Assembly: GCF_036971445.1 (NCBI RefSeq)
Contig: NC_091476.1
Coordinates: 97,960,001-98,024,000 of the forward strand
Reading direction: 5' to 3'
DNA: 64,000 nt
Source: Narcine bancroftii
Taxonomy: Eukaryota
Part shown: in pieces, positions 5,766 to 60,600 of the stretch
Layout: each line of letters opens with the position of its first letter
How positions within the stretch are numbered: position 1 is the stretch's first letter
Made by a program: the position numbers and the translations under genes
The notes under the pieces: generated by a model
Seen by the model: the letters and a program-made list of their open reading frames with translations, nothing else
Databases searched by the model: none
Told to the model about the DNA's origin: nothing

Positions 5766-5816
5766 CTCCGTATCTCAATGGAGTAGACACGGGAACCCCA
5801 CCCGCACACTCATGCC

Positions 5817-7590: not shown

Positions 7591-7621
7591 CTCTTTCTTT
7601 CAATGAAGCATCTTGAGACCA

Positions 7622-8288: not shown

Positions 8289-11200
8289 TGTGGTGATATG
8301 TAATTACACCACTAGGTCACCAAGGTTCATCCCGGTGACCTTGTATATAAAGCAGTCCAGAGCTAAAGTCTAGCCTTCTAGGTTCATCTTACAGAGAAAC
8401 AAGATATCTTAGTGTGCATATTAGTTTATTAAAGCTGCCTTATACTTGCACTGCTGGTGTGGTTATTGTCAGTAAAATTTAATAAATTAATATGATAGCT
8501 ACTAGGATAGAAGCTGCTTCTGCTCCAATGCACATTCCTGACCACCTGGAGACTCTTCCTGAGGAATGAAATCCGGAGACAATCAGCACGCACATGCATC
8601 GGAGGTCAGAGACAGCAAGGGACCGCTGTACTAGAATCGTGGTGAAATGTGGGGAAGACCACAGAAGTACGATAGGGCAGGTAAGAAATGGCCAAGAGCC
8701 CTGCCTGCCCATGGGCTCACCAAAACAGGTGCTGCCAACCCTAAACCTCGGTCTGATCAGAAAGGGGCCACTACAAGCGCGGGTGGAAAGATCTCCACAA
8801 GTCGTCCTCCCGATCACCACGTATGTGCAGAATTCCTGACCACTCCAAGTCAAGGAAAGCAGACGTCGCTACCGTCACTCCCCCAGCAGTAGTTTCCCCA
8901 GTACCAATGCTACCACTGTGTTCTGCCTAAGCCACTGCAAATGTCCCAATGCCAGAGACCCAGCCAACAGCCCCATGCTCCCAGGTTACTCCTCCAGCAG
9001 ACACAAGCCCCACAGAGGCTTTACCAGCATCTCCCAGTATCCCAGGGTCCGCCCTTGCTACACCTAGATCCAGAGACCACATGGAGACCGGGAACAACCC
9101 CCAGGGTGCCCCCACGTTACCTAAGGGATCAGAGACTGCAACTTAGCCATGCACTGCGACCAGGCAGGCTGGAGCTTGACTTCAGAAATCCTGGAGCCGG
9201 CACGCACTTCAGCCTCTGGCGGAGATGCTTTCTGAATTACGTGGAGGGTGCTGAGGCATCGGATAAAGAGTTATTAATGCTGCTGTTAGCGCAGCTGGGA
9301 GACCACCCTTACTCCCTTATACAGGATGTCAGGTCCTACCAAGAGGCAATGAGCATTTTACAGAGGCATTACAGTAAGGGGCATAATGAACTCCACTCCC
9401 AGTACAGACTCATGACCAGGTCACAACAAGTGACCAGAGACTTTATACTCTCTCTGAAAGACCTGGCGAGAGGCTGCAACTTTAAAGCAGTATCAGCTCA
9501 GGAGTATGCGGAGGACTTTATTACAACAGAATTGTTGCGGGCATACGGTCCACTGAGACGAGATATCGATTGCTGGAGAAAGGAATGGTGGGGCTAGATG
9601 AGGCAGAGACTATCGCAGAAGCTTTAGAAAACACCAGGAAAGAATTGGAGGAGTACTCACAGGACCCTGGGGCTGGGACAAACGTCACACTGCTGGACTC
9701 TCTAGCCCCAGGAAAAGTATGCTGCCTCACAGGAATTCACAGCAGCAGCAGCACCTTGAGGGTCCCAAGTGCTTTTTCTGTGGACAAAGAAAGCACCCCA
9801 GAGCCCTCTGCCCTGCCAGAGAAAATGCCTGTTCCAACTGTGGAAAACGTGGGCATAATGCAAAAGTCTGCAGAAGCCCCAAGGCCACAGCCAAAATCCA
9901 TTCTCATGCCAATGAGAGGCAGGAAAGCTCTTCTTTCTCCACAGAAACAGAAGAAGAAGAATGCCATGTGCAACCAGCCATCTTGGACAAATGCTACAGA
10001 GCAGAGTAGTCTTCAGGAGATGAATATGATGCTGAGTACTATCGGATGGAAGGACACGAAGGACATGCCAGACTTGCTTCCCTATGCATGAATCAGGCGA
10101 GTCCACACAATTTATCTGATGCCACTGTGTGCAACAAAATTAATGATGTGAGGGTAAATTGCTTAATAGATAGTGGAAGCACTGAAAGTTTCATTGACCA
10201 GGGGTTAGTCAACTGCCTTGCCCTCCCCACACGCCCGAGTGAGCACTGGATCCTGTTAGCAGCCAGCACCCTTGCGGCTGAGGTAAAACAGTTTTGCAGG
10301 ATTACTCTAGAAATCCAGGGCACAAAATACAAAGGGTACAAATTACGAGTACTCCCTCACATCTGTGCCCTGGTACTATTGGGGTTAGATTTTCAGTGTC
10401 AGTTAGAAAACATTACAATAGTGCACAACGGGCCTCACCCCCCACTACGCCTTACGAAGAAACAACACTGCAGCCTGTCTGTCCTGAACATAGAACCCCT
10501 TCCACTGTTCACACACCTGACCCCAGAATGCACACCAATAGCCACAAAGAGCAGGAGGTGCAGTCTTCATTAGGACAGAGGTCCGCATGCTACTACAGGA
10601 GAACATCATAGAGCAGAGCACCAGCCCCTGTAGAGCCCAGGTGGTTGTAGTCAAGTCAGGAGAAAAACTGCGCATGGTAGTGGATTACAGCCAGACAATC
10701 AACAAATTTACACGACTAGATGCCTACCCCCTGTCATGCATAGCAGACATGGTCAACAACATTGCGCAGTATAAGGTGTTCTCCACCATAGACCTGCAGG
10801 CAGCATACCACCAACCGCCCATTAGAAACAGCGATCGCATTTACACGGCATTTGAGGCAGATGGCAGGCTGCATCAATTTATGTGACTCCCCTTCCGTGT
10901 TACCAGTGGAGTGTCCCTGTTTCAGAGAGAAATGGACTGAATAGTAGATGAGCTCCAACTGAAAACGGTGTTCCCCTACTTCGACAACGTGACAATCTGT
11001 GGCCACATTCAGGAGGATCATGACACGAATTTAAAACGCTTCTTCCAGGCAGCCGAGGAAAGGAACCTAACATACAACAGGGATAAATGCGTCTTTAGCG
11101 CCAGGAAGTTGCCAATCCTGGTCTACATAGTGCAGAACGTGGAAATCAGCCCAGACCCAGCCCATATGCGCCCTCTCCTAGACCTCCCAGTGCCACACAC

Positions 11201-12366
11201 GCTGAAAGCACAAAAAAGGTGTTTGGGACTGTTCGCTTACTATGCCCAATGGATCCCCAACTACACCGACAGGGACGGCCCACTTATAAAAGCCTCAGTT
11301 TTCCCACTATGCCCAGCAGCCACCAGAGCATTCAGGGACATTAGGGACCATATCGCTAAAGCTACCATGTGGTCCATAGATGAATCGATCCTGTTTCAAG
11401 TAGAAACAAATGCATCGATGTGGCTCTGGCAGCCCCCCTGAACCAAGATGGACGACCGGTGGCCTTTTCCTTGCGAACCCTACAGGGGTCAGAGGTAAGA
11501 CACTCAGCAGTAGAGAAGGAGGCCCTAGCCATTGTGGAAGCCGTAAGGCACTGGCGACATTTTCTGGCATGCAAACACTTCACCCTCGTCACGGACCAAG
11601 GGGCCAACTAATGTTCGATAACCACAACAGGGGGAGAATTGAAGAACGACAAAACCCTGCACTGGCAGATAGAATTGTCTACATTTAACGACGACATTCT
11701 ATACCGCCCCGGGAGCCCCCGGACGCGCTGTCCAGAGGCCATCTTTAACCACACGTCCCAGTTGCAGAGCTTGCACTATGAGCTGGACTGTTTCACTTTA
11801 TTAAAACCCCAGTCCTCCCATTTTCGGTAGAGGACGTGAGGTTAGTGAACAAGAGCTGTGCGAAATACAAACCACAATTTTACCAGCCAGACAAAGCTAC
11901 CCTGATCAAAGCTACCAAACCTTTTGAGTGCCCCAGCCTCGATTTTAAAGGATCGCTCCCATCCAATAATAGAAATGCCTATTTCCTGAACGTAATAGAT
12001 GAATATTGTTTCCCCTTCGCAATCCCATGTTCTGATGTATCAGTAGCCACTGTTCTCAAGTGCCTCCAACCCATCTTCAGCATATTTGGGTACCCGAACT
12101 ACATACACACAGACAGGGGTGCTGCATTCATGAGCGCAGAAGGACAGCAGTACCTGCACGAGAGAGGGATTGCAATTCCTAGTGCAGCCAATGCACGTTT
12201 TGAGGAATGCCCCCAGTGCCCCCCACCCCGATGACAGTGCGACCACACCAGAGTGGTGGGTGCACCAAGTCACAGCAGTCCAGTCCGCAGACAGAGCCTC
12301 AGGCAAAGCTGGCCCCAACACTGTAACTTGACAACTCGGGAGACCTTGAGCAAGGGAAGGGGGAAA
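8289..12366 (+). mobile_element. Degenerate Ty3/Gypsy LTR retrotransposon (element G1): 5' LTR 8289-8476, gag-PR-RT-RH-IN, PPT; 3' LTR absent
   Basis: LTR starts TG, with TATATAA at about 8344 and ATTAAA at 8428. Gag LRPGRLELD.. with zinc knuckles CFFCGQRKH..C and CSNCGKRGH..C; protease LIDSGS; RT LRMVVDYS and PYFDN; RH EKEALAIVEAVRHWRH; IN LDFKG and HTDRG, C-terminally deleted. PPT-like AAGGGAAGGGGGAAA at about 12352-12366. Confidence 0.9.
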
Positions 12367-19541: not shown

Positions 19542-22500
19542 GTGATAGCATTAGGGACAAGGCAAAGAAATATTGTAAGGGCTGGAAATAGTTGGCATGA
19601 GGCTTTAGATGGGCTTGTTTGTAGCCAGGATGGAGTACCTGGCTGAGTATTAAAAATCTGTGCTGATCAACTTACCAATGTATTCACAGATATATTCAAC
19701 ATCTCACTCCAGAAGGCCATGATATCAACCTGTTTCAAACAGGTGTCAATCATACCAGTAACCTGCCTTAAGACTATTGGGTAGTAGCACTTACATCAAA
19801 TGCAATGAAGTGTTTTGAAAGGCTCATGTGAAGCATAACAGTTCCTGTCGAAGCGGTGACATGGCTACGTTCCCATTCACCTGTCGTAGCAACAGGTCTA
19901 CGGTGGGTGCCATCTCATTGGCTCTACTCAAACCCCTGGAACATTTGGAGAGTAAAGATGCATTTATCAAGATGCTCTGCATTGACTATATTTCAGCATT
20001 TAACGCCATTATTCCCCTCTAAACTGATCAGTAAACTCCAAGACCTGGGATTCAATGCCCCATTGTGTAATTGGACCATGGATTTCCACACAATTAGTGA
20101 GGATTGGTAAGAACATCTCCACAATCCCCATCAATACCGGAGCACCACAGGACTACATTCTTATCCCCCAGCTCTACTCACTTTACACCTATGATTGTGT
20201 GGCTCGGTTAAGCAATAATACCATCTACAAATTTGCCAACAGGTAGTGATTTGTATAAAGGAAGGGAATGAGTCAGCATAAAGGAGGGAGATTGAAAACT
20301 TGACTGAATGGTGCACCAACAACAATCTTCCACTCAATGTCACCAAAACTAAGGAGCTGATGGTTAACCACTGGAAGGGAAAGCCAAAGGTATTCAATCC
20401 AGTCATAATTGGGGGTTCCGAGGTGGAGAGGGTGAGCAAATTTAAGTTCCTTGGAGTTACTATCTTTGAGGTTCTTTCCTCCCATCATGAAAAAAGCATG
20501 TCAGTGCCTCTACTTCCTCAGGTTTGGTATGACACCAGAATCCCTGGCAAATATCTACAGATGTGTGGTGGAAAATGTGCTGACCGGTCTGGTATGTGGA
20601 CACCAATACCCCTGAGTGTAAATCCCTCCAAAGGTAGTGGACACAACCCAGGATATCACAGCCAAAACCCTCCCAAATTTTGAGAACATCATCAGGGAAC
20701 GCTGCCATCAGAGAGTGGCAGCAATCATCACTGATCCATACCACCCAACACACACTCTGTTCTTGCTGCTGCCATAATGAAAAAGGTACAGCTGCCACAA
20801 GTCTCACACAACCAGCCTCAGGTACAGCTGCTATCCCTCCTCTCTCAGACACCTCAATGACAAACTCAATTAGGGACTCATATAAGGACGTGCACTTTAT
20901 TGATTTTCTTTATTCTCTCAGTTTGTTTACATTTGTTATCTGTTTACAGTTCTTTATTCTTTTATTTACAGTTTAAAAAAAATTCTTATAAACTGTGCAC
21001 ATTTTTTTTGCACATCCAAAAAGAGGCAATTTTGCCTGGCCTGCAGAAAAAAGAATCTCAGGGTTGTATGTGATATTATGTACTCTGACAATAAATCTCA
21101 AATCAGAAATCTGACATTAAATCTGGGAAGTAAACTTAAAGTTCAATTTTGGTCAGCATGCACAGTGGGGACATCCTATTTGGTTTTAAAATCCATCTCT
21201 GCATTTTATCAGTGCCCTCCAGGCCTGCTCTAACTCCCTCTGCTCATTCCGTGCAGTGACAGGATGTGGCTCTGCCGACTTTGGCTGCCACGTTTCCAAA
21301 AGTAGAGCAGCGGGAATGCATCCCCAAGCACCCCACCCCCAAGTTGCAAAGTGTTTCTGACCTGTTGCAATGACATGCCGTTTGCTCCCTTGTGTTTTAT
21401 TCATATCTCAAAACTCCGTGTGAAGAAACAATTGGAAAAGACTAGTTGCTTTTAAGGCTAGCTGAATGAAAACTCAGAGTAATCGATGAACATTAGTGCA
21501 AAGAAATGGTTACATATTGGGCAGGGTTGCTGCCTGGTGATTGAGGACAGATTGGGCAGAGGTGGTGCCTGGGCATTGGGTGCAGGGTAGTTAGTAACTA
21601 CTTGGGAATTGGATGCAAGTTGGGCAAAGGGCACTGCTTGGCATGCTGGGTGCTAGTTATGGGCAAGTACTGCTTGGGGTCAGGAGAACCGGACAGTCAG
21701 GTATGAGCATAAGTCAAGCAGGTACTGCCTGGTTATATGGAATGGGCTTGGAGTCTGTGTACAGATGGTAGTGTCTGTCTGATATACTGTGCTTACTGTT
21801 AAGATAAATTGTTATTTTTTTTAATTACTAGTTTTTAATGGCTTGAAGCTGGTAATTTTGTGTGTACATTTTCAAAAGTTATCCAAATAGTGGGGGGGGT
21901 GGGTGTGCGCTTTGCCTCTTTGACCCCCACTGTACACTTCACTCAAGCACTCAGCATTTTTCTCTTTTTTGTTGACCTCATTCATGTTCCAATGGAATTA
22001 TATGATTGCATTAAGATTTAGAATGATTTTGGCTGCATTATTTTTTTCACTGAGTTGACTTGCATTGAGATTTTCCTGCAGTAAATGCAGACCACATTGG
22101 ATGTGCCTGATCCTACATTCTTCATGATATTCCACTATATAATCCAAAAGAAGAGGAAACTTGGAGTGATAGTATAATTCAACAGCATATTTTTTGTTCC
22201 TTCATGCTCCTAAATTAAAGGATAGAGTACCTTAATAATTGATATGAATCTTATTCATTATACAGGTACACGATCCTTTACCCGGACATCGAAAATCCGG
22301 AAAGCTCCAAATTCCGGCAAATGGGGACCAGTGGTTGGGGGAAAGGGAGACTGCTGGGCGGCCGAGGGACCACGGTTGGGGGAGACTGCCGGGTGGCTTA
22401 GGGACCGGCAGTCAGGGAGACGTCCGGGCAGCCGAAGGACTGCGGTCAGGGGAGAAGTCTGGGCGGCCAAGGGACCGGTGGTCTAGGGAGGCGGCTGAGG

Positions 22501-28500: not shown

Positions 28501-31500
28501 TCTCCACGATTTATTGTGTGAATCCAACCAGGATCTATTCTTGGAAAATAATTAGAAATAGTCCCAGACAGCTTTTACCCTCTATTTCAATTGAATTATG
28601 ACTTGGTAAAGCCATATTTATTTAGATCCATTAGCTCAGTAAAGAGGAAAATTTGATTTGAGAGCTTTGCAGTAGATTCAGTTAAATACCATGCCATCTT
28701 AATGAGCCAAACTATTCAAGAGAATAACTGCAAAATAAAACTTTTTGTAAAGATCAAAAGAAACATAGAGACATGTCATGAAGAAAACATTAAAAAATAT
28801 TCATCTGAACTGTATTATGAACAAATTATCATTGAAATTCTTTCAAACTGTAAATTCTTGCCTGCATCATTCCAAGGCATGCTGCCTCTTAACTGAAGGA
28901 ACAGGTTTCATAGATCTACCATTCCACCTGTACCTACCTATAACCTCTTTTCTGTTAGCTTGTGCTAACCCTTGTGACATTTTTACTCAGGTGTCTGTTT
29001 GATTTTTTGAAACTCTTGATGAAGGGTTCAAGTCCTGAAATGTCATCGGCCTGTTCCTTCCTATGGATGTTGTTTGACCTGCTGAGTTTCTCCAGCACTT
29101 TTATATACTGTCAGGAGATCTTAATGATCTTTAATCAAAATGCTCCATATTTACCACTTACAAGCATGAACTCTGCGTATTAATTTGTATTAATATGTTT
29201 CCCCCATAATGAGATTGATCGATTCTTGTTTAGCCAGGGGATCAAATGTTATGTGAAAAAGGCAAGGTCTAAGTGGGAAAATGGATCAGCTCATGGTTAA
29301 ATGTCAGAGCAGACTCAATGGGCTGAATAGCCTATTTCTGCTCCTTTTCCTCTTGGCCTTATGGTCTTTTTTCTTGTTATTGAAATAATGAAATTTCTGA
29401 GGAGGTGTCAGAAATGCAGTCTTTAAATTCTGAGGCTGGACCTCCGTGCCCACAGATTTTCATGTAAATTGAGAAGTCCCACTTTACACACAAAGGACAT
29501 TGTTTATAAAAATTGCTAAAGTTACCTTCCACTATGCTATTATGATAAAGCAAGCTTGACTATATATAGCTAGTTAATACTATCATGTGGCAAGAATGAA
29601 AAGAAATTGTTAGAGAAATTGTACTAAACCTTTTTTGCCATTTCTGTAAATACCCTTAGTAATCTTAAAACAACATTTATTGCTCATGACCAATAATATG
29701 CAAACTACATCCTTGGAGAAAATGACATGAAAATTTAACAGAATGGCAGCGGACTCCTAGGTTAAACTTATGCAAAGAGGTTAAACAAACTAGTATTAAT
29801 TCATTCAAATTGCAAACGTTTATGGGTTGACTTTGGTTTTGAAGATATTGAGGGGAATTCAAAATAGAGTTTACAAAGAACATTGCAATCGATCAGTGAG
29901 TTGAACAGGAAGTATGTGGTCTTAAATTTTGACACAATGTCATTTGATTTATTAATTGCAATTTGATTTTGTTTTAGAAGTCCCCATATTTGAAGTTTTT
30001 CAACATTGTTTATAAAACTGTTTCAACATAAATTAGCTTTTTGAGAATCCCCGTAATACTTTGAATCTCTCATTATGATGGAATTACCTTCATGTGCATC
30101 ATGTAGGGTTAAGCATCTAAAATAGCACAAGTTACCTCCATTTAAATTTAGCACCATGGCACATTGAGGCAGATGTTGGACAAAAGTGGATCTTATGAAA
30201 TATCTCAAAAAAGTAGAGAGAAATAAGTCTAGCAGAAGTGCTTTCAAAATTCAGGTGACTAAAGTCGAGATTGTCATTGATGGAATAATTAAAATATTCT
30301 GCCCTATTCAGATTTCATGTATGTCAGTGTAAATACATGACATCACATACAACCCTGAGATTCCTTTTTCCCGTGGGCATGGCAGAATTACTTCTCATTG
30401 GTAGTGCAGAAAATAAACTGTTCACAGCATGAACATGTAAACAAATAAAAGAACTGTAAACACATAACGAATGTAAAGAAAATGTGCAATACAGAGAGAA
30501 CAAAAGAAAATCAATAAAGTGCAGAAGTAAGAGTCCTTAATTGAGTCTTTGATTGAGTTTGTTGTTGAGGAGTATGATGGAGGAGGGGGAGCAGCTGTTC
30601 CTGAACCTGGTGTTGCGAGTCTTGTGGCACCTATACCTCTTTCCCGATGGCGCCAACAAGAACAGAGCGTGTGTTGGGTGGTGTAGGTCTTTGATGATTG
30701 CTGTTGTCCTCTGACAGCAGTGTTTCCTGTGGATATACTCAAAAGTAGGGAGGATTTTGCCTTTAATGTTCAGGGTTGTGTCCACTACCTTTTGGGGGGG
30801 CTTTATGCTCAGGGGTATTGATGTTCCCGTACCTGTCCTTGATGCAGGCGGTCAGCACACTTTCCACCACATATCTGTAGAAATTTGCCAGGGTTTTTGG
30901 TGTCGTACCAAACCTCCACAAACTCCTGAGGAAGTAAAGGCGCTGATGTGCTTTCTTCATGATGCCATTGGTGTGTTGGGTCCAGTAAAAATCTTCTGAG
31001 ATAGTGACTCCCAAGAACCTAAATGGGCTCACCCTGTCCCCCTCTGATCCCCCAATGATCACTGGATTTTATACTTTTGGCTTTCCTTTCCTGAAGTTAA
31101 CAATCAGCTCCTTAGTTTTGGTGACATTGAATGCAATGTTGTTGTTGGTGCATTTTTCAGTCAAGTTTTCAATCTCCCTCCTGTATGCTAACTCATTCCC
31201 TTCCTTTATACAACTCACTACCGTGGTGTGATCGGCAAATTTGTAGATGTACCGAGCCACGCAGAGTAGGTGTAAAGTGAGTACAGAGCAGTGGGCTAAG
31301 AACAAAGCCCTGAGGTGCTCAGGTACTGATGGAGATGGTGGAGGAGCTGTTCTCACCAATCTTCACTGATTGTGGTGTGGAGGTGAGGAAATCCATGATC
31401 CAATTACGCAGTGGGGTGTTAACTCCCGGGTCTTGGAGTTTGATGATCAGTTTTGAGGGGATGAAGGTGTTAAATGTCAAACTGTAGTCGATAAAGTGCA

Positions 31501-34500
31501 TCCTGATGTATGCATCTTTGCTGCTCAGGTGTTCCAGGGCTTTGTGTAGAGCCAGTGAGAAGACATCTGCTGTAAACTTGTGTGATAGTACAGATCTATC
31601 ACCAATGTACATAGTGTATATAGTTACTGTATCTAGACTGTGCTTACAGCGATTGGCTGAGAGCTAAGCCACACCTATTGTTTGGGCCTTAAAGGGTTGT
31701 GTCCCTAGCCAGGTCGGATCATTCCGGACTGGTCGGCCACCTGTGAAGAGCTCCGGTCTTTTGCTAATAAAAGCCTTGGTTTGGATCAACAAGTCTTTGG
31801 TTCTTTCGACGAGCTCTACAATTTTATTAGCAAAAAGAATTTTTTTTGAAAGGGATGGAGCGTTTAACTCGGCCAGAAAAACTTGATATCGACCCACAGT
31901 CAGCTACAGCCTTCAAAGCCTTTAAGTTCTGGCTGCTGAACTTTGAAAACTTCCTGAGATTCATTCAGGTAGAGGAGGATAACCAGCGTCTAACAGCATT
32001 GCTGTCTATGGTGTCCTTGAGAGTCTACGAGAACATCCAGGATGAGACCACTTACACCGCAGCCATAAAGGTACAGAAGGAACTGTATGATCAACCGGTG
32101 AACAGAGTTCATGCCCGGCTCATGCTTGCGTCGAGGAAGCAACAGCCCGGCGAGTCCAGCAGGGCATATTTACAAGTATTAAAGGCATTGGGCAAGGACT
32201 GTAACTGTGTGGACAAAACTGCTGCCGAGATCACTAGCGACCTCGTCCGGGATGCCTATGTGGCCGGGCTCCGGTCGAACGAAGTGAGGCTGCGTTTGCT
32301 CGAGCAAGGGGTAGAAAAACTAGAGGACGTGGCCCGGATTGCAATCACAATGGAGGATGCAGCCTTAAAGTCCACCGAGCTCTCTAGGGACTGGACCCCT
32401 CGTTCTGATGTGAGTAGAGTGCCCTTCTACCCTACCCCTGACGGCCTTTCGGCTGCTGCTACCCTGCCCCGTGCGAACCCGAAATGTTATTTCTGCGGGA
32501 GGGACAAGCACAGCAGATCCCAGTGCCCAGCAAGAAAAGCCAGGTGCCAGAAGTGCCTTAAAAAGGGCCACTTTGCTGCAGTCTGTAGGTCTAAAATGGC
32601 CGCCAGCAAACACAGTGCCTCGTGTGAAGCTCAACCGCCACTATCCCATTCAAACTCTTCTTCCCCAGAGCTCTCGTCCAATGAGAGCGAGGGCTCCCCT
32701 GCACGGCAACGCCTGACGTCACGGAGACGCCGAACCCGGAAGGGGCAACCCACCGTCGCAACCATGGTGATGGCCTGCCTCTCGCCCCCGTGCGGAACAC
32801 TTGACACTACCGCCGCTGCTGCCGCTGCTGCCGCCGCCACAGCCACCCCCGGGGCCGACGCTGCCGCCGCTGCTGCCGCCGCCACGGACACCCCCGGGTC
32901 CGACGCTGCCGCCGCTGCTGCCGCCGCCACAGCCACCCCCGGGGCCGACGCTACCGCCGCTGCTGCCGCCGCCGCCACGGACACCCCCGGGGCCGACGCT
33001 ACAGCCGCTGCTGCCGCCGCCACGGACACCTCCGGGGCCGACGCTACAGCCGCTGCTGCCACGCATCACGGATGTGGTGAACCAGATCGCCCAGTACCGC
33101 ATTTTCTCCACTATTGACCTACGTTCGGCCTACCACCAGCTCCCGATCCGCTGCGAAGACCGACCATTCACGGCCTTTGAAGCGAATGGGCGGCTATATC
33201 AATTTCTCAGGGTACCATTCGGGGTCACAAATGGTGTCGCGGTCTTCCAGCGGGAAATGGACAGGATGGTGGACCAGAACGGGCTAACCGCTACCTTCCC
33301 GTATCTGGACAATATCACCATCTGCCGCCACGACATGCAGGACCATGAACCAACCTAGACAAATTTCTTCAACTGCCCGTCAGCTAAACCTGACTTACAA
33401 TTTGGACAAGTGTGTTTTCCGGACCACACGACTCGCTATTCTAGGTTGTGTGGTGGAAAACGGGATAGTCATGCCAGATCCTGACCGCATGCGTCCCTTA
33501 ATGGACTTACCCCCCCCACATACCCAGAAAGCTCTCAAACGCTGCCTGGGCCTTTTCTCGTATTATGCCCAATGGGTTCCAAACTACGCCGACAAGGCAC
33601 GTCCTCTTATCAAGACCACCTCTTTTCCCCTCTCGACCGAAGCCACAGCGGCTTTCGATCGAATCAAATCTGACATCGCTGCTGCGACGCTGCACGCGAT
33701 CGATGAGTCTGTCCCGTTTCAAGTCGAGAGCGATGCATCCGACTTCGCCCTGGCAGCCACCTTGAACCAGGCCGGTCGGCCTGTAGCCTTCTTCTCCAGA
33801 ACCCTCCAGGGTCCGGAGAGTAGACACTCCTCGATCGAGAAGGAGGCCCAGGCCATAGTTGAAGCGGTACGTCGTTGGAGACATTACCTTGCTGGGAGGC
33901 GCTTTACACTGTTGACTGATCAACGCGCGGTCTCCTTCATGTTCAGCAACACCCAGCGTGGTAAGATAAAAAACGACAAAATTGCCAGATGGAGAATCGA
34001 ACTCTCCACCTTTAACTATGACATCCTGTACCGGCCTGGTAAGCTCAACGACCCGCCTGACGCGCTCTCCAGGGGGACGTGCGCCAGCATACAGATGGAC
34101 AGACTACGGAAACTCCATGAGGCGCTCTGTCATCCAGGGGTCACTAGGTTTGCTCACTTTGTCAAGGCGCGCAACTTACCCTACACAGTTGAGGAGATCC
34201 GCTCCATGACCCGAGCCTGTTCGGTGTGCGCCGAATGCAAGCCCCACTTCTTCCGTCCGGATAACTCCCACATCATCAAAGCCACCCGCCCCTTCGAGCG
34301 TCTTAGCGTAGACTTTAAGGGACCCCTACCGTCGACCAACTGTAATACCTACATCCTTACGGCCATCGACGAATACTCCCGCTTCCCATTCGCTGTGGCC
34401 TGCCCAGACACCACTGCCACCTCAGTGATACAGGCCCTTCACAGTATTTTCACCATCTTCGGGTACCCCAATTCCATCCACAGTGATAGGGGGTCCTCAT

Positions 34501-37500
34501 TCATGAGTGCAGAGCTGCAACAGTACCTTCTGGAGTGTGGTATTGCTTCAAGCAGGACCACGAGCTATAACCCACGCGGTAATGGCCAGGTCGAGAGGGA
34601 GAATGCCACCATATGGAGAGCGGTTACACTGGCTCTCCGGTCTAAAGGTCTCCCCACCTCTCACTGGCAGGAGGTTCTCACTAGTGCCTTACACTCCATC
34701 CGCTCCCTCCTATGTACTGCAACAAATGCCACCCCCCACGAAAGGATGTTCCTTTTCCCGAGGAAATCCGAATCGGGAACCACTGTACCGGCATGGCTCA
34801 CCGTCCCTGGCCCTGTCCTTTTGCGACGCCACGTCCGGCACTCAAAGAACGACCCCTTGGTCGACCGAGTGACTCTACTCCACGCGAACCCACATTACGC
34901 ATACGTGGAGTTCCCAGACGGGCGGGAGGACACTGTTTCGGTGCGGGACCTAGTTCAGGACGCGGTAGACCCAGCAAACCCCCCAACTCCTTATGCTCCA
35001 GGCCCCGTGCCGCAACAGAAGGACCAACAGCACCCCAATGACTCGGGCCACCCTGCCGACAAAACGACTGGGGAATTGAGCGACGGAGCAGTCGCACCCG
35101 ATGAGCCCGCTGGCGACACCACTCCAGCGACCCCAATCCCGGCACCACGGCGGTCACGCCGGATGGTCAGACCCCCTGACCGCTACAGTCCTTGACCTAC
35201 CCCTTCCTTTTCATTCTCTCCCTCGTTTTTGTTTTTTTTTCCAGGGTCAATTCTCCAAGAAGGGGTGAATGTGATAGTACAGATCTATCACCAATGTACA
35301 TAGTGTATATAGTTACTGTATCTAGACTGTGCTTACAGCGATTGGCTGAGAGCTAAGCCACACCTATTGTTTGGGCCTTAAAGGGTTGTGTCCCTAGCCA
35401 GGTCGGATCATTCCGGACTGGTCGGCCACCTGTGAAGAGCTCCGGTCTTTTGCTAATAAAAGCCTTGGTTTGGATCAACAAGTCTTTGGTTCTTTCGACG
35501 AGCTCTACAACTTGTTACTATGATGGGTACCACTCAGTCAGGAGCTGATCTGCTCCATCACCAGCCTTTCAAAACACTTCATCACAGTTGATGTAAGTGC
35601 TACTGTTCGATGGTCATTAAAGCAGATTTCTACACTCTTCTTGGGCACTGGTATGATTGATGCCTATTTGAAACAGGTGTTCAAAGGCCAGAACTGAAGA
35701 GATGTTCAAAGCAAACTTACTTTCAGCACTGTTTAATATTGAAAGAAGCAACATTTTTTAAACATCTATTATCGGTTTCATTAAAGATAATCACAGCTTT
35801 TAAACCTTTGGGTATGATTGAAGCAGTCTGCATCCAAAGTATTTGATGACCATATTCTAATTGGAATACTGAGTCAGAATGTAAAGTGAATTGATAGGTT
35901 GGCTTTTAGCAGAAGTGGAATCTTTCAACAAACAGTTAAGTGCCTTAAGGCAGAGCTAAAATGTGAGTAATAAAGTCTGATTAGTGAAGCAGAAGAAGAG
36001 TTACCCAATCTCAAACTGGTTTAGAAATAGGAGATACCTGTGAATGTCGTTACAATTGCAGCACAGAAGGCATGGCAGCCGTTTTATAATGCAGCAGGGT
36101 CCCACAAAGAGAAATATGATATAAAAACATACAATGCTGGGAAAAGTCTACAGGTTCAGGCAGCATCTTTGAGGAGTGAAAAGGAGTTAACAGCTCAGAA
36201 AGAAGCAATGTGGTAATGGCCATATATATTGTATTTGTTTGTGGTGAATGAAGAACAAATATCGTCGTGACCAAAGCAAAGTCATGGTAAATCCATTTTG
36301 GGGCCAAAAAAAAGTTGAAATGTAAAACTTTGTCTGAAGGATAGCATATCATAAAATTATGCATTTTCTTGATATTGCACTGAAGTGTCAGCCGAGCCTT
36401 TGGGCGTGAAGTTTCTGGGCATCCGTCTGACTCAGTGTGCCCAATCAATCCATGGTGATGGTTTCATTCGAGAAAGCAAAGGACAACCAGTGATAATTGT
36501 CTAATAATTACAATTTATAATGAAGGATTGAAATTTGAGATTGTTGGATTTTAAGTTATGTTTTTTTTCCAGATCCAGTTAATGTAACCACTGAGATGAG
36601 GTAAGAACTCTATTTTACTTTGGCCATTATAATTTTATGCAAATATTTTCATACTGACATTTAACGTGTACATTTTACTAATGTGTTTATAATATGCTGT
36701 ATGTTGAATTATATTTGTTGAATTTGATTAGTATATTTCACATTCCATCTGATCATTCAAATGCTAATTTCTATAATTTTGAGGACCCAAAATTCAACTG
36801 AAGTGCTGTGACTATATATGAAAATGACTGCAAAGAATCCTGAGAATCTTATGAAGATAATCTAGGGTGTCAGCAGTGAAGGAGGTGTTGGCAGTCTTAG
36901 ATGGTGTCAATGTGGATAAATCTCTAGATCCAGGCAGGAACTCCCAGGAAATTGGGGGAAGACAAGAAGGACACTTTTAAAAATATTTTCATAGATTCGC
37001 AAAATTCAAACAAACAGTATAATCTTTCAACATTTGTACAATATACAGAGTCGATGTTTATTTCCCCCTCACCTCCCACCCCAACCCCACCCTCAACCTA
37101 CTGAAAAAACGGTCAATTAAATTGTACAAGTATAAATTCTGTGGGGTCATAGACCCTTACAGAAACCTAGGAAAAAACATCCACAATGGCTAAATAACAA
37201 AGACTAAAAAAAAATTAAAAGGGGAAAAAAAACAAAACTAAACTAAAAAAACCATGTTGTCTGCGCTATCTTCAACTTTCTTGGTCACTTTTGTTTCCCT
37301 GCTAGGACGGATTGCTATCGTACCCCTATTTCAAAGTGGAGGTGGGGGGGCTAATCAATCTGTGTGCCAATATATTTCAAATAAGGTTGCCACACCTTAA
37401 CAAATGTGTCGTGTTTCTTGCTTAGATTGTATGTGATTTTCTCCAGGGGAATGCAATTCTGCATTGCCATATTCCATCATATGGTCTATAGTTGGGAGTC

Positions 37501-40500
37501 AGACTTTCACGAAACCTCCATACACTTCCGCCAATGCAATCTTCAAGAGCGGAAATTGTTCTTTGCTCAATCTAAAACTCACATCCCCAGTATCTCCTGC
37601 AAGGTACAACACCAGATCCTGTGGACAATCCACTTTTGTAATTTTTTTCAGGATATCCTCCAGGTCTTCCCAGACATAGCCAGGTGGAGTGGACAAAAGT
37701 TCCAACCTCCACTTGACATCTAAAGAATCTTTCTAAAATTGCAGGCTTTGATTTGTGTATTTTTTGTGGTGTGAGGTACAACTGGTGTAATAAATTGTAC
37801 TGCACCAACCTGTTTCTGGCATTGACGACCTTGAGGTGCCCAAGTCCGACTCAAATCTCTCCCTCAACCTGACACTGTTAAAACCTTGACAAACATTTTT
37901 AATTCTTCACTGAACTCGCGAGACATTTCAGAAGAATGCAAATATGATGCCATTAATGAAAAAGTCTGTAAAGATAATTCGAGTAGCTATACTCCTTTTA
38001 GTCTGACATCAGTGGTGTGGAGTGGATTCTAAAAGATAGAGTCTATGAGCATTTGGATGGCTAGGAGAAAATTAAGGTGAGGCAGCATGAATTTATGTGG
38101 GAATGTCTCACAAACTTGATAGAACATTTTGAAAATGTGTCAAGCAGGATAAGTAGATGAGGGCAAGGCAATTGATGTTATTTAGTTGGATTTTAGAAAT
38201 GCATTTCATAAGTTGGTGAAGAAGGTGAGAGCACATGGGATAAGAGGCCAACTAGTCACCTTGACAAACAATTGGCTTAGTAATAGGAGTTAGAGAGAGG
38301 ATCTAGATAGCAGCTTTTCAGACTGAAGGGCCTTGACTAGTGGAGTACCTCAGGGTTTGGTTTGAGGACTCTTGCTTTTGATTTTATATATGTATATATA
38401 ACATGTACTTATCACAGCCGGTGCAGACGGCCGTGCCCAAGCGCCAGGGCCGGCTGCCAAAGCGACAAGACATGTAGCCGGTTCTGGGGGGGGGGGGGAG
38501 GTTGTATGGTGGCGCACATCGTCATGGCATACCGGCCCACTTGTATCGCCGCGTGGTGGGGCAGCCATGGGGAAATGGGGTTGTCAGAGGTTTCTCTCTG
38601 ACTCCAGTATCCCTTCTAGCAGGCGCCCTGGGCAGTGTTATGATGTCACAATGCACCAGGTGCCCTTAAAGGGGCGCACTGAATTGGAATAAAAACAGTC
38701 ATTAACAACCATCGGTGTGGTAGCAGTGATTTCCTTCAGCTCCTGCAATCGCCACAGTGGTGACCCTGATGGGCCCAGACGTCTATCTGGACCCAGTGAA
38801 CGATGGACGCAGCCGAGGTGAGCACAGTAGCCATCAAACATCCCCCTTCTGGCCCCACTGCACACAGACATGGTTCGGGCAGGCGGAGGCACAATTCTAC
38901 CTCCGCAACATCTCAGCCGACGCCACAAAATTTTACCTCGTCGTGGACGCGCTGGACCAGGACACGGTGGCGATGGTGAATGACATCATTCACAGGCCAC
39001 CAGGAGTTGGCAAGTATACCGCCATCAAAAATCTACTCCTGGGGAAGTTTGGCCTCATGCCACAGCAGCATCCTTCCAGGCTCTTACGCCTGGATGGGTT
39101 GGGAGATTGCAGCCCCTCAGCCCTATGGACAAAATGTTGGCCCTGACGGAGGATCATGAACCGTGTTTCCTCTTCCTCCAGATATTTCTTGAACAGATGC
39201 CAAAAGATACCCGGCTTAATCTGTCCGAAGAGGCCTTTCCCGACCCCCGCAAGGCCGCAGCCTCTGTCACACAAAACAGTAGAATGAGGCAGCCCTACGC
39301 CAAGTCTCCAAGCCGGGGCCCCGCCATCCACAGGATACCACCAAGCACAAGCTGGAGGAAACTCAGTCAACACAGTGCTTTTATCACCAGCACTGGGGAG
39401 TGAAAGCCTGCATCATGCCCCCTCTTTTCACGCTGATTGCGATGAAAGAGAAGATTCTGGCTTGGTCGGAGGAGGCAGACGAGGCCTTCCCTCCAATGAA
39501 ACAGGCCCTCACAGAGGCAACTTTGTTGGTGCACCCTCTCCCGGCAGTGCACACGGCACTCTCGGTCGATGCTTCCGCCACAGCGGTCGGGGGAATACTG
39601 GAACAGTGGCTGGACAGGCAGTGGTGCCCGCTAGCCTTTTTCAGTAGGCATTTGCGGCCGCTGGTGCTTAAATACAGTGCGTTCGATGGGGAGCTCCTGG
39701 CGCTGTACCTGGCCATCCGCCACTTACGATACTTCTTGGAGGGCAGAACTTACACCGTTTTTACCGATCATAAGCCCCTCACCCAAGCACTGGCTATGGC
39801 CAAGGACCCGTGGTGGCCCAGGCAACAGCGCCATCTGTCCTACCTGTCCGAATTCATGGCAGACATCCGGCAGAGGGAGGGCAAGGACAATGTGGTCGTG
39901 GATGCTCTCTCTCGTCCGGCCTCAGCACGCTAGCTCCCGGCCTCGACTATGGACAACTAGCGCAGGTCCAGCAGCACGATGCCGAAACTCAGGTCTCCAG
40001 CTCGAGGATATCCATCTTCTTGACTCCACCCAGCCTCTACTCTGCGACACTTCCACCGGCTCACCATGCCTGGTAGTCCCACAAGAGTGGAGTGCGAGGG
40101 TCGTCAGCTCTATCCACAATCTCGCCCACCCCTCAGTAAAAACTATCATGCATATGGTGGCACATCGATTCGTCTGGCATGTCCTCAAGAAGGAGATGGC
40201 AGCGCTAACCCACAACTGCATCAGGTACCAGATGTCTAAAGTCCACAGGCACATGCCAGCCCCTGTTCAACATTTCAACTTGGCAACACAGAGGTTCCAC
40301 CATATCCACGTGGATGTTGTGGGCCCCTTGCAGGTGTCCAGGGAGTTGCGGTACCTGTTTACCATAGTGGATGGAGCAACCAGGTGGCCGGAAGCCATCC
40401 CGGTCCGTGAGGCGTCAGCGGAGATGTGTGCTAGAGCCTTGGTCAGCTAGTGGATCTCTTGTTTCAGCGTGTCGGTGCACATCACGAGTGACAGATGCGC

Positions 40501-43500
40501 CTAATTTCCCACTATGGTCGCAGCTGGCAAAGCTTTTTGGGGTAACACTGCACCACACGATGGCCTACCACCCACAGTCCAATGAGTGAGTAGAGAGGTT
40601 CCACCGACTCCTAAAGTCTGCTCTGATAGCAAGACTTTCCGGCCCCGACTGGGTGGACGAGTTGCCTTAGGTTCTCCTTGGAATTAGGATGGCGCACAAG
40701 GAGGACCTGCAAGCCTCATCAACAGAAATGGTTTACGGCGTGCCACTCTCCCTGCCAGGTGAATTCTTCACACCGGAGGCCGAAACGACACACAGCGAAG
40801 GTGATCAGCTCGCGGACCTCCGTAAACGACTGGGCAACCTCACCCTGCTGCCCCCATCACACTACGGCACCCCACCATCCCATCAACGGAAAGATCTGGC
40901 TGAGGCGCAATTTGTGTTCGTCCGGAGAGGACCACAGAGAGCCCTGCTGCGGCAGTTTCTTCAATCTGAGGCGCCTGCAAGCTCACACCAAGACACAAGA
41001 GCAACTTGTCCGTGAACTACTCTTTGCAGACGATGCCGCTTTAGTTGCCCATTCAGAGCTAGCTCTTCAGCGCTTGACGTCCTGTTTTGCGGAAACTGGC
41101 AAAATGTTTGGCTTGGAAGTCAGCCTGAAGAAAACTGAGGTCCTCCATCAGCCAGCTCCCCACCATGACTACCAGCCCCCCCCACATCTCCATCGGGCAC
41201 ACAAAACTCAAAACGGTCAACCAGTTTACCTATCTCGGCTGCACTATTTCATCGGATGCAAGGATTGACAATGAGATAGGCAACAGACTCGCCAAGGCAA
41301 ATAGCGCCTTTGGAAGACTACACAAAAGAGTCTGGAAAAACAACCAACTGAAAAACCTCACAAAGATTAGCGTATACAGAGCCGTTGTCATACCCACACT
41401 CCTGTTCGGCTCCGAATCATGGGTCCTCTACCGGCATCACCTACAGCTCCTAGAACGCTTCCATCAGCGTTGTCTCCGCTCCATCTTCAACATTCATTGG
41501 AGCGACTTCATCTCCAACATCGAAGTACTCGAGATGGCAGAGGCCGACAGCATCAAATCCACACTGCTGAAGATCCAACTGTGCTGGGTAGGTCACGTCT
41601 CCAGAATGGAGGACCATTGCCTTACCAAGATCGTGTTATATGGCGAGCTCTCCACTGGCCACCGAGACAGAGGTGCACCAAAGAAGAGGTACAAGGACTG
41701 CCTAAAGAAAGCTCTTGGTGCCTGCCCCATTGACCACCGCCAGTGGGCTGATCTCGCCTCCAACCGTGCATCTTGGCGCCTCACAGTTCGCCGGGCAGCA
41801 ACCTCCTTTGAAGAAGACCACAGAGCCCGCCTCACTGACAAAGGACAAAGGAGGAAAAACCCAGCACCCAACCTCAACCAACCAATTTTCCCCTGCAACC
41901 ATTGCAACTGTGTCTGCCTGTCCCGCTTCGGACTTGTCAGCTACAAACGAGCTTGCAGCTGACGTGGACATTTACCCCTCCATAAATCTTCGTCCGCGAA
42001 GCCAAGCCAAAGAAAAGAGAAGGGGGGCAGGGAAGAATTGTTTACTGTGGACCACTTAAACGCTGCTTATTTACTTATCACAGCCAGTGCAGATGGCCGT
42101 GCCCAAGCACCGGGGCCAGCAGCCAAAGCAATAGGATGCGTAGCTGGTTCTGGGGGGCGGGGTTGTGTGGCGGCACACATCCTCATGGCAAACCGACCCC
42201 GCTTGTATTGCCACGTGGCGGGGCAGCCATGGGGAAATGGCATCGTCAGAGTTTTCTCTCTGACTCCAACATCCCTTCCAGCGCCTGCCCTGGGCAGCAA
42301 TTACGATGTCACAATGCACCAGGTGACTGAGCTCATGCTGCCCTTAAAGGGGCGCGCTGAATTTGAATAGAAACAGTCGTCAATGACCTTCGGTGTGGCA
42401 GCAGTGATTTCCTTCAGCTTCTGCAAGCACCACAGTATATTAATTTGTGGAAATGTAAGTTTGATTATGACATGAAAAGATATGCAGCAGTGGACAGAGA
42501 AGAAGGTTACCTGGTTTGCAACATTCCAAATCAATCAGTGAATGTAAGTGTTCAATGTTTGACAGGACAATTTAAAAGTAATAAAATTATATTTAAAATA
42601 AATATATACTGAAATTAATGGGCTCTTTGACTTAAATTGCCAGAGATTTCATTTTGAGTAAAGTAGTCAGTGAAATCTGGACCATTAGTTTCTAAAAATA
42701 ATTTTAAATTAATTAAGATTATAGATGAAATAATTATGGTTAAAAGGTTTGCTTTGTTGTATGATGACCACACAAGACGACAGAATTAATTTTTCATTGT
42801 GACAATGAATAAGAAGACCTGCAAAACTATATGGATCTTGAAACACTAAAGTATGTTCATGAACTAAAACATCATCCTTTTTTTAAAAAACTTGGATTCA
42901 GGATTCCACACTGAAGGACATTTGAGCAGATCAGGAGGTGCTGGTATATTAATCCCTGGCTCTTTATAATCTAGCTCAACGCAGGAAACTGTTAACAAAA
43001 CTATATAAATCATAGACATTAATCTTCGTCCGCGAAGCCAAGCCAAAGAAAAAGATAAATCATAGGAGTAAAGCCAACTGTTTAATTAAAATCACTTTCA
43101 AATTAAAATTTCTGATGTGTAATGATTGTATTAACAAGTACAAATGGGGCAGCTTAAAAATAGCTGTGGTCATGATAACAATGTGGTTATACCCATTGAT
43201 GTTAAACATAAGTCTCATCAACAACCCTGCAAAAGTTTCAGTCGCTTCTTGTCTGCAGAAAGTTCCTCAGTGAATCCCACAATTTTGCTTTCTGTTGATA
43301 AATTTTCTCCAGATTGATTAGATTAAGAGTGAACCTCTGGTTTGGTAAATATCAGTTTATCTAATTTCTTAACTCGTATTTTGTAAAATTGGCATAAAAT
43401 AATGTTTGCAATTACCTACAGCATCAACTTAGTGGATGCCATCACAGGGAAATTACCACCCAAGATACTGGAAATACTCAGCAGGCAGCATCTGTGAATT

Positions 43501-57610: not shown

Positions 57611-60600
57611 TGTTACAAGATCAAACCAGCAACCACAAAGAAGGCATATCACACAGGGGTAAAGATTAACAATTACTTAATTAACAAAAATTCACCTTCA
57701 AACTTTAATTCAAAATACTCCCTTTTATAACAATGCCCTTTGGTTACTATGCAAATTTCTATAACAGTGTAAAACTAATAAATTGCCAGCCTAAATATAA
57801 CATATGTAATTAAAGTCTAAGTTATATTTCCAACCAGCCCACAGAAAAACTTAGACACAAAACAAACACAAGACTCACAAAACTTCGATCTTAACTGAAG
57901 CCCAAAGATCTTTGAAAGAGAGAGAGTACAAAATTCGAAGTTGTCTTGTGTTGCTTGCAGAGAGAGACCATGGCTTGGTCCCGATCTTTCTGGCTGCCTT
58001 TGGAATGTTCATCCCTTTTAAAATACTCAACATTCTAAACTGTCTTCCAGACAATGACTCATGTTTTGGGCCTCCTTCCACTTCATAAGATACACAGTGG
58101 AGGTTTGTCATCCAAGTCCAGAATTTTTTAGATCATTTTCTGCACAGGCCCAGTCTGTCTCCCACTCTCTTAGCAGCCCACCTTCACCTTGGCTCTCTAA
58201 GGCAACTGTCAAAACCACACAACACATAGGCCAATACACTACACAGAACTCTGTAACGCCTCCCCTGCTAAAAAAAATTGGTCCACAAGAACAATTTTTT
58301 TTAACAATTAATGGAAGTATTACATAAATAAAATAAACATTCCATTTTTTTTACAGTATGTGATTAGATTCATATCTATAACTTGCATCTTGGTTGGAAT
58401 CCTAGTCTACTCCTCGGTCATTTTCTCAAAGTAAGGTTTAAGCATGGTCACGTGACAGACCTGTTTCTTCGATGATCAGGTGTCTCAATGACATAGGTGA
58501 CCTGGTTAATTTTTGATTTCACCTTATATGGTCCTGAAAACTGAACACTCAAAGGGTTTGACTGCATTGGAAACAGAACCAATACTTTGTCGTCAGGTTT
58601 AATGTCCCTAATATTTGCTTTTAGATCATACCGAATTTTCATTTTTCCCTGAGCAGCTTTTAAATATTTCCTTGCCATCTTGCAAGCCTGATGTAATCTG
58701 TTTTTAAAATTGAAAACATAATCCAACAGATTTGATTGTATATCATTATGTATCCACTGTTCCTTCAACAATAGTAATGGACCCCTGACTTCATGACCAA
58801 ACACCAAATACCAACTCAAATGAACTAAACCCAAGAGACTCCTGAGTTGCCTCTCTAAAGCAAACAATAACAAATGGATTCCTTCAACCCAATCCCTTTT
58901 ATTTTCCACGCAATAAGCCCTCATCATATTTTTCACAGTTAAATGGAACCTTTCCAAGGCCCCTTGACTTTCTGGATGATAAGCAGATGACGCAATTTGA
59001 TGGGCTCCCAATTCATACACCACCTATTGAAATATTCCATACATAAAATTACTCCCTTGGTCTGATTGAATTTCCCTTGGTAGGCCAAAGAGTGAAAAAT
59101 TTTAGCATAGCCTTCACAATCATCTTTGCTTTAATGTTTCTCAGGGGAATAGCCTCTGGAAACCTTGAAGCTGTGGACACGAGTGTTAACAAATATTCAT
59201 TTCCTGCTTTGGTTTTTGGCAATGGGTCAACACAATCCACTATCACTTTTGAGAAGGGCTTCCCGAAAGCAGGGATGGGTTGTAAAGGTGCCAGTGGTGG
59301 TCCTTGATTAGGCTTGCCCACCAGTTGACAAGTGTGACAGGTCCTACAAAAGTTCACAACATCATGCTTTCGCCTAGCTATTGATTCTTCTCTTAACAAC
59401 AGCAAAGTTAGATCCTTAGGTTTGTCCTCAATGCTTGCCTGCACTAAGGATCATCACAGACTTTCTCTCCCTCTACTTTTTTTCTAGACATGGCTCTAGT
59501 AATGGCACATGCAGGGTAGATTTCCAAATCCTTTTCAGACCCAAAAACCAATGGCTTACTTGTGAGTTTCACAGCAGGTATGACTTTACCTTCTGCTAAA
59601 TCATTCCCTAACAAAAGAGAAACTCCATCCACCGGCAGACTTGATCTTATCCCTATCGTAACCGGGCCATTAACTAAGTCTGATTTCATCACTATTCTCT
59701 GCTTCATCACCAATGCCTTTAATTAAATTCACATCTCCAAAATTTTGGTCTCCTCACCAAAATTCAAAACGTTGCTTAATACAAGCGATTGGGCTGCTCC
59801 AGTATCCCAGAGGATTTTAACTGTCACTTGATTGGATCCTTCTTTAACCGAAATGAAACCTTCAGTCATGAATGGTTTAAAACTATCCCTAACTTTCTCA
59901 CTCTGAACACAGGCAATTGTTCCTTTTCAGTACAGGACAATTTGCTATTATGTGCCCTGGCTTCTTACAATAGTGGCAAATAACACTCAAAAATTTTTCC
60001 TTCACCCATTTCTCTTTCTCTCTTCCTTTAACCTCACTTCTAGATTTTCTTTCTACTCTACTTGGATTATCAGCAGTATTCCTTTGAAAGGCTTTCCCTG
60101 ATGTCCACTTAGACTTGTGGGTTAAAGCCTATTTCTCTGTGAATTTAGCCAATTCTTACCAAGTTTTTATATTTTTCTCTGCCAAGTACACTTGAATAAC
60201 ATCAGGAACACAATTTTTAATCCCCTCATTCAGAAGGATTTCCCTCAATAAATCAGTTATTTTCTACTTTCATTGCGGCGCATCACCGATCAAAACACAC
60301 AACCTTCCTATAAGCAAAATCCAGGTAAGATTGGGTTGCTGCTTTTTTTAAACTCCTGAACTTTTGTCTATAAGCATCTGGGACTAGTTCATAAGATCGG
60401 AGTATAGCCTGCTTTACAAATTCATAATCAGCTGCTTGTTGTACCATGAGACACGAATATACCTGTTGGGCTTTCCCTTTAAGAACACTTTGTAGCAGGA
60501 GTGACCACTGATCTGGTGACCATTTTAAATTTGCACCTACTTTCTCAAAATGCTGAAAATATGGTTTAACTCTAGTTTTCTCAAAGCCAACTTTACTTCC

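Follow-up and report, generated by a model that had tools for sequence, protein, structure and literature searches.

Results

Two Ty3/Gypsy-type elements in the window carry YxDN

The window, the whole stretch of 64,000 nucleotides that was analysed, holds two Ty3/Gypsy-type elements of the same clade, G1 and G2 (Table 1). G2 is young but non-autonomous. Its closest intact relative was P0155, a single ORF of 1457 aa with YLDN, which carries the database name Narcine bancroftii. A GC-rich 9/27-45-nt tandem repeat at 32766-33105 gives the Ala/Thr-rich runs in G2 gag and is also found in intact P0155, and the deletion in G2 starts at or near this repeat. The flanks of G2 (31450-31580 and 35510-35650) lie inside another high-copy repeat, and many contigs join them without G2; approximately 184-197 contigs of run X3 continue beyond the LTR ends into different sequence, as many copies or solo LTRs would produce. 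Since G2 is without protease and RT N-terminus and is frameshifted just past the motif, it cannot demonstrate YxDN activity and likely moved in trans, probably mobilised by an intact YLDN element from the same family. G1 likewise cannot demonstrate that YxDN works. Its stop codons stand just ahead of motif C, and when an LTR pair and a self-complementary primer stem were looked for in G1, neither was found.

Table 1. Features of G1 and G2 in the window.
Feature	Position	Strand	Basis
G1, decayed, same clade; gag, PR, RT, RH and IN pieces; stops at 10884 and 10938	9140..12174	+	
G1 RT motif C, YFDN; Asn codon AAC 10986-10988	10977..10988	+	sequence and translation
G2 target-site duplication ACTTG, 5 bp; second copy 35510-35514	31576..31580	.	
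G2, non-autonomous Ty3/Gypsy-type LTR element, 3929 bp	31581..35509	+	
G2 5' LTR, 240 nt, TG..CA, 100% match to 3' LTR	31581..31820	+	
G2 LTR stretch pairing with primer site, includes AATAAA 31766-31771; putative self-primer	31759..31772	+	
G2 self-complementary primer-binding site, 14 nt, begins 1 nt past LTR, no TGG	31822..31835	+	
G2 gag, CCHC-type knuckles and Ala/Thr-rich GC repeat; protease and RT N-terminus deleted downstream	31855..33055	+	tblastn vs P0155
G2 RT core fragment, frame broken near 33350-33370	33056..33370	+	
G2 RT motif A catalytic Asp (STIDL), kept	33116..33118	+	
G2 RT motif C, YLDN; Asn codon AAT 33311-33313	33302..33313	+	sequence and translation
G2 RT C-terminus, RNase H and integrase, 99.2% identical to intact P0155	33372..35192	+	
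G2 polypurine tract	35257..35269	+	
G2 3' LTR	35270..35509	+	

An earlier note on this DNA had reported Asn in place of the last Asp of RT motif C in both elements, divergent as they are and with different codons (AAC and AAT), and this was confirmed from the sequence. In G2, positions 33296-33325 read TTC CCG TAT CTG GAC AAT ATC ACC ATC TGC, translated as [10 protein letters not shown]; the span quoted earlier, 33296-33322, stops one codon short of the Cys. The context in G1 is FPYFDNVTIC. The motif A Asp is present in both elements, and Pfam RVT_1 covers both motifs (E=1e-13 for the G2 piece; E=3e-4, below Pfam's cut-off, for the G1 piece), with each Asn aligned opposite the last Asp of Ty3 YLDD. 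G1 and G2 represent separate families, because only 58/94 residues and 175/282 bases are common to their RT cores. The usual motif is found in two unrelated RTs of the window, as YIDD near 3312 (minus strand) and as FADD in a LINE-like piece (ORF 40630-41268).

Several other repeats lie in the window. A decayed retrovirus-like element occupies ~1490-7600 on the minus strand, with the YIDD RT at 2986-3519, an integrase at 1492-2022, and a 448-aa ORF (6253-7599) that has no Pfam match and is possibly gag. A third Gypsy-type LTR element at 38403-42436 has LTRs 80% alike, a TGG-type primer site, and RNase H and integrase pieces, and contains the LINE-like RT fragment with FADD. In addition, there is an inverted repeat pair (19892-21082 and 30334-31581, ~1.2 kb, 74% alike) and a direct repeat pair (57611-58257 and 60938-61631, ~0.7 kb, 83% alike) that encloses integrase-like remnants at 58448-59261 on the minus strand.

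YxDN is shared by otherwise intact relatives

The fourth motif position was tabulated in three sets of relatives. Among the best 150 of 24,334 HMMER matches, 78 had N, 63 had D and the remaining 9 another residue or no readable one, which makes the shared Asn of G1 and G2 more than a coincidence; the D rows include distant elements at 33-40% identity. For full-length Gag-Pol, the tabulation over intact members that the earlier note had called for, the query region excluded the motif itself, and the best 120 of 708 long matches gave 89 N, 30 D and 1 gap. In the best 120 of 2740 shorter matches, N stood in 77 and D in 29, and the motif of 14 was unread. Because these sets were ranked by likeness to a YxDN query, the N share describes the neighbourhood of G2, not the whole clade. 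Of the 89 N rows, 88 kept every one of the 14 further catalytic or zinc residues checked in PR, RT, RNase H and integrase, as did 29 of 30 D rows, which supports the earlier proposal that YxDN is a lineage trait and not decay. Eight multi-member clusters, with 15 members listed for each, were uniform wherever the motif was readable (6 YxDN, 2 YxDD). Nine full-length YIDN proteins were 96.6-99.8% identical to one another, five of them being named Pocillopora loci. YxDN proteins carried the host names Narcine, Hypanus, Mobula, Oculina, Actinostola, Pocillopora, Porites, Plakobranchus, Clonorchis, Spirometra and a Trichinella; YxDD proteins carried Trichuris, another Trichinella, Caligus, Trichonephila and Achroia.

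At the DNA level, 88 loci were collected, consisting of the best 80 of 567 metagenome matches and 8 from bacterial genome bins. The motif was covered in 71 of them, which fell into 43 families (27 N, 15 D, 1 decayed). The loci from bacterial bins (L081-L088) are eukaryote-type retrotransposons in bacterial metagenome-assembled genomes and are probably host contamination. At L039:1822-6236 the LTR pair is opposite in orientation to the matched pol stretch, through either an internal inversion or an assembly artefact. In viral contigs, 34 pattern matches were obtained, and none was confirmed as a relative.

Intact YxDN elements have inserted recently

Two loci are young and intact. L006 has a single ORF of 1217 aa, identical 184-nt LTRs and a 5-bp target-site duplication (TSD), and L024 has a single ORF of 1253 aa, identical 220-nt LTRs and a TSD; both carry YxDN together with all catalytic residues. 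Where the earlier note had left it to young autonomous copies to decide between YxDD and YxDN, these copies came out as YxDN. An LTR-like pair was found in 26 loci and a 5-bp TSD in 13 of the 26, all 13 of N type; L026 and L028 are one and the same insertion. An AlphaFold model of P0178 had a mean pLDDT of 76.7, with 93-95 across the motif, and its RT-RNase H part matched Ty3 RT (4ol8_A) at a TM-score of 0.80 by target length, a model of this kind being unable to separate an active from an inactive enzyme.

Ty3 RT is an asymmetric dimer. We regard it as unlikely that the YxDN enzymes have little or no polymerase activity and depend on complementation in trans by YxDD relatives, for instance by supplying RNase H as one subunit of a Ty3-like dimer. 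YxDD members do coexist in the clade (30/120 full-length proteins, 15/43 DNA families), G2 itself is a case of trans-mobilisation, Ty1 with the equivalent D211N change is unable to transpose (available part of PMC2148107), and YxDD helpers may lie elsewhere in the Narcine bancroftii genome, of which the 64-kb window was the host sequence analysed. However, residues needed for polymerisation only were invariant in 89/89 YxDN proteins, namely both catalytic Asp, the R72-equivalent, the PFG of motif B and the motif Tyr. RT dN/dS was 0.033, 0.057 and 0.029 in pairwise comparisons of L003, L004 and L005 (dS 0.8-0.9), on a par with the low values for RNase H and integrase, these three non-independent pairs from three loci being the only ones in the usable dS range among 22 long-ORF loci. 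The same three loci showed a synonymous AAT/AAC change at the motif Asn codon itself. Moreover, in the assembly that holds L006 and L024, 14 of the 14 clade loci recovered among the best 80 of 567 matches were YxDN. The earlier note had argued for an active YxDN RT from the recent insertion of G2. The conclusion stands, as the intact relatives (L006, L024, the 88 proteins and the dN/dS values) make an active RT very likely; the insertion of G2, a truncated and frameshifted copy, does not serve as evidence for it.

A self-complementary primer site marks the clade, and D and N switch within it

In G2, the 14 nt at the primer site pair with 14 nt in the 5' LTR. Throughout the clade the primer site was 11-20 nt long and began ~1 nt past the CA of the LTR, and the partner stretch lay 24-70 nt upstream and usually ended in an AATAAA-like word; the sequences varied between families while the pairing held. 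A stem of at least 11 bp upstream of gag was found in 29/31 N loci (G2 included), 6/7 D loci and 2/3 rows without a motif call, the miss being G1; two further D loci were too short for the stem test. Among the loci with known motif, 35/38 had the stem, and shuffled sequences matched its length in 0-2 of 40 cases. Both arms changed together across at least 20 families. Folding z-scores of the G2 LTR-primer region were modest (-1.15 and -1.76); what argues for the stem is that it recurs from family to family, not its folding energy. No tRNA was predicted by ARAGORN within the 64-kb window. These sequence comparisons point to Tf1-like self-priming in the clade.

A FastTree phylogeny was built from RT-RNase H-integrase with the two motif columns dropped; it included 118 ingroup rows and 7 of 10 candidate outgroups, and P0156 and P0158 were left out as aberrant. 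The ingroup required 15 D/N changes, whereas 200 shuffles required 26 on average and never fewer than 21, and 11 independent D/N pairs lay on well-supported branches. IQ-TREE with 28 rows gave 10 D/N changes and rejected N monophyly (p-AU 2e-50), a test that confirms the topology and is not blind, because the rows were picked after the FastTree result was seen. By the FastTree phylogeny, D and N have switched at least 15 times among 118 proteins. Asp may still be favoured at times, as about a quarter of the full-length relatives carry it, often nested among N rows. Across 1314 column-residue tests on the 11 independent pairs, no residue co-varied convincingly with D/N; the best candidate went in the same direction in 5.8 pairs and in the opposite direction in 0.9. 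The D/N-associated residues from an initial co-variation search were kin-driven and were not upheld on the independent pairs. WRAQ, DYSQ and GVTNGV are clade-invariant, differ from the outgroups and are at most leads.

Slightly less probable still than complementation in trans is that Asn was selected jointly with self-priming, a co-adaptation that the earlier note had suggested. By family, 16/18 N families have the self-complementary site, and a clade-wide priming mode could belong to a background that permits Asn. However, the stem was also present in 5/6 YxDD families (4/6 if L076, whose stem is off the usual place, is dropped), the 15 D/N changes fall inside the clade, and YVDN also occurs in nematode BEL elements. 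Since the primer site occurs in N and D families alike, co-adaptation is unsupported. On the sequence comparisons, the primer site appears to mark the clade, not the Asn.

The Asn codon is probably read as Asn

Recoding to Asp, either in the transcript through A-to-I editing of AAY or in the protein through deamidation, would make the working enzyme YxDD, but it seems very improbable. A single A-to-G change turns AAY into GAY, and D and N were the sole residues at this position in 118 full-length proteins. Against this, 29 N-type sequences showed no local hairpin around the codon, with z averaging 0.01 and never falling below -2. The family was present in many contigs of public runs, and the deepest motif contig of run X1 (depth 230) keeps the motif codons among the variants listed, where X1, guessed to be RNA, may be DNA, and contigs lose rare variants. 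A Gly following Asn favours deamidation; the residue after the motif Asn is mostly Ile, Val or Leu. Least credible is that YxDN arose by repeated CpG deamination (GAC GAY to GAC AAY) in dead copies, a reading that the intact young YxDN elements refute. In its favour, neither G1 nor G2 is intact, GAC precedes the Asn codon in each, and CpG mutation may supply part of the D-to-N changes. Against it, N is shared by whole multi-copy families, 88 N proteins are otherwise intact, and 16/27 N families have no CpG at the motif because GAT precedes the Asn codon.

Discussion

To our knowledge, RTs are regarded as needing all three aspartates, and elements with YxDN are often annotated as dead copies. 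A GDN motif occurs in the RNA polymerases of mononegaviruses. The best explanation of the elements described here, which we consider probable from their sequences, is a putative Ty3/Gypsy RT that is active with two essential aspartates and has a third position relaxed between D and N. G1 and G2 would be members of a Ty3/Gypsy clade, widespread in animals, whose YxDD motif ends in either Asn or Asp. The two invariant aspartates would hold the catalytic metals, and the third position would need only an Asx-shaped side chain, no other residue being present there in the full-length proteins. A clade-wide active-site background probably tolerates the loss of charge that cripples Ty1 D211N; candidates for it are the clade-invariant WRAQ and GVTNGV, which replace WxSP and GLxNAP. 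The 5' end of the transcript would fold back onto the primer site, as in Tf1.

An argument against this reading comes from Ty1. According to the available part of PMC2148107, in vitro polymerisation by Ty1 D211N goes on at a kpol reduced 223-fold and with a preference for Mn2+. The mutant fails to transpose; with RNase H suppressors, 5-10% of transposition returns. Comparable flexibility is stated for the equivalent Ty3 mutant. Whereas the engineered Ty1 mutant, altered at the same position, needs such suppressors to transpose, the natural clade elements insert with their RNase H acidic residues intact. Asn at this position also has natural precedent. According to those parts of the sources that were available, Cer7-Cer12 of C. 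elegans have YVDN, with activity left open in a 2005 paper (PMC554778, citing Bowen and McDonald), and an intact Atlas belpaovirus with identical LTRs has YVDN as well (PMC9094657). The premise of the earlier note, that YxDD is nearly invariant in RTs and that Asn generally cripples retroviral and Ty1 replication, was too strong, given polymerisation by Ty1 D211N in vitro and natural YVDN in nematode BEL/Pao.

These nematode BEL/Pao elements (Belpaoviridae) thus share with the clade an identical Asp-to-Asn change, in intact elements too. In the sources as far as available, YVDN is described as a lineage mark in BEL/Pao, whereas D and N alternate at least 15 times here. Because BEL/Pao is a different superfamily, the two origins are likely independent. 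For Sinbad, of BEL/Pao, PMC554778 (available part) gives a gag with a triple Cys-His motif and an integrase spaced DD(49)E; in the present clade the integrase is DD(35)E (D964-E1000), and gag has two Cys-His-type knuckles.

The clade has the PR-RT-RH-IN pol order of Ty3/Gypsy (Metaviridae) together with TG..CA LTRs, a PPT, and a TSD of 5 bp, in G2 and the 13/26 LTR-pair loci, within the 4-6 bp of that group. Its RT is closest to the Ty3 type, with Ty3 as the best PDB sequence match (E=2.7e-71) and 4ol8_A as the fold match. Compared to Ty3 (RT in PDB 4OL8 and 7Q5B; Metaviridae), it is alike in Gag-PR-RT-RH-IN, LTR termini and PPT, and unlike in YxDN (89/120), in one gag-pol ORF of ~1.2 kaa, in WRAQ and GVTNGV, and in having no tRNA-type primer site. 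Cigr-1 of Ciona has LTRs of ~245 bp and one ORF of ~1210 codons, dimensions close to those of the clade elements. As far as the sources were available, the Cigr-1 clade is named in PMC6238403 and a class label Gypsy-Cigr is used in the supplement of PMC8556966; the present clade may already stand under Cigr-1 or a MolGy name. The clade motifs had no match in the supplement files of PMC6238403, PMC8556966 and PMC12471100 that were available.

Self-priming is described for Tf1/Tj1, whose primer sites pair with a stretch of their own LTR and not with a tRNA (PMC4600332, in the part available). The clade resembles Tf1/Tf2/Tj1 and the Tf1/sushi group of that source in its own-LTR primer and in the absence of TGG; unlike them, its pairing stretch is 11-20 nt and usually includes an AATAAA-like signal, and the likeness comes from pairing alone. 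Elements of the Tf1 type are further characterised by a transcript that begins at the primer stretch and by RNase H cleavage that releases the primer. No chromodomain was found among the Pfam annotations of clade proteins. Two further groups were compared from partly available sources. Troyka has CG..CG termini and a 3-bp TSD (PMC12440569), where the clade has TG..CA and 5 bp. Saci2/lennie has a 4-bp TSD and a tRNA-matched primer site (PMC12471100), and the clade, with a 5-bp TSD and a self-complementary site, is set apart from it by description only; three Spirometra accessions found here were absent from the main text of that paper in its available form. In the literature covered, a scope outside Repbase, GyDB, Dfam and most subscription papers, we found no report of YxDN in a Gypsy clade or of a self-complementary priming site. 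The substitution itself has BEL/Pao precedent; the apparent novelty is a Gypsy clade of broad range in which D and N switch repeatedly and self-complementary priming is clade-wide.

On balance, we lean towards the view that sharks-and-rays, corals, jellyfish, molluscs, flatworms, nematodes and arthropods harbour a Ty3/Gypsy lineage, unnamed or unexamined so far, that primes itself and is replicated by an RT with two aspartates, the third position flipping freely between D and N. A rule that takes YxDN for a dead copy would misclassify elements of this clade, because intact, recently inserted YxDN elements are under purifying selection. Close natural N/D sister pairs (for example P0228/P0245 and P0165/P0173) make the question of Asn for Asp addressable with unaltered enzymes, down to their metal preference and processivity, and the clade-wide self-complementary primer site is a second lead. 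If the view is true, the lineage supplies natural sister enzymes that solve the defect of Ty1 D211N.
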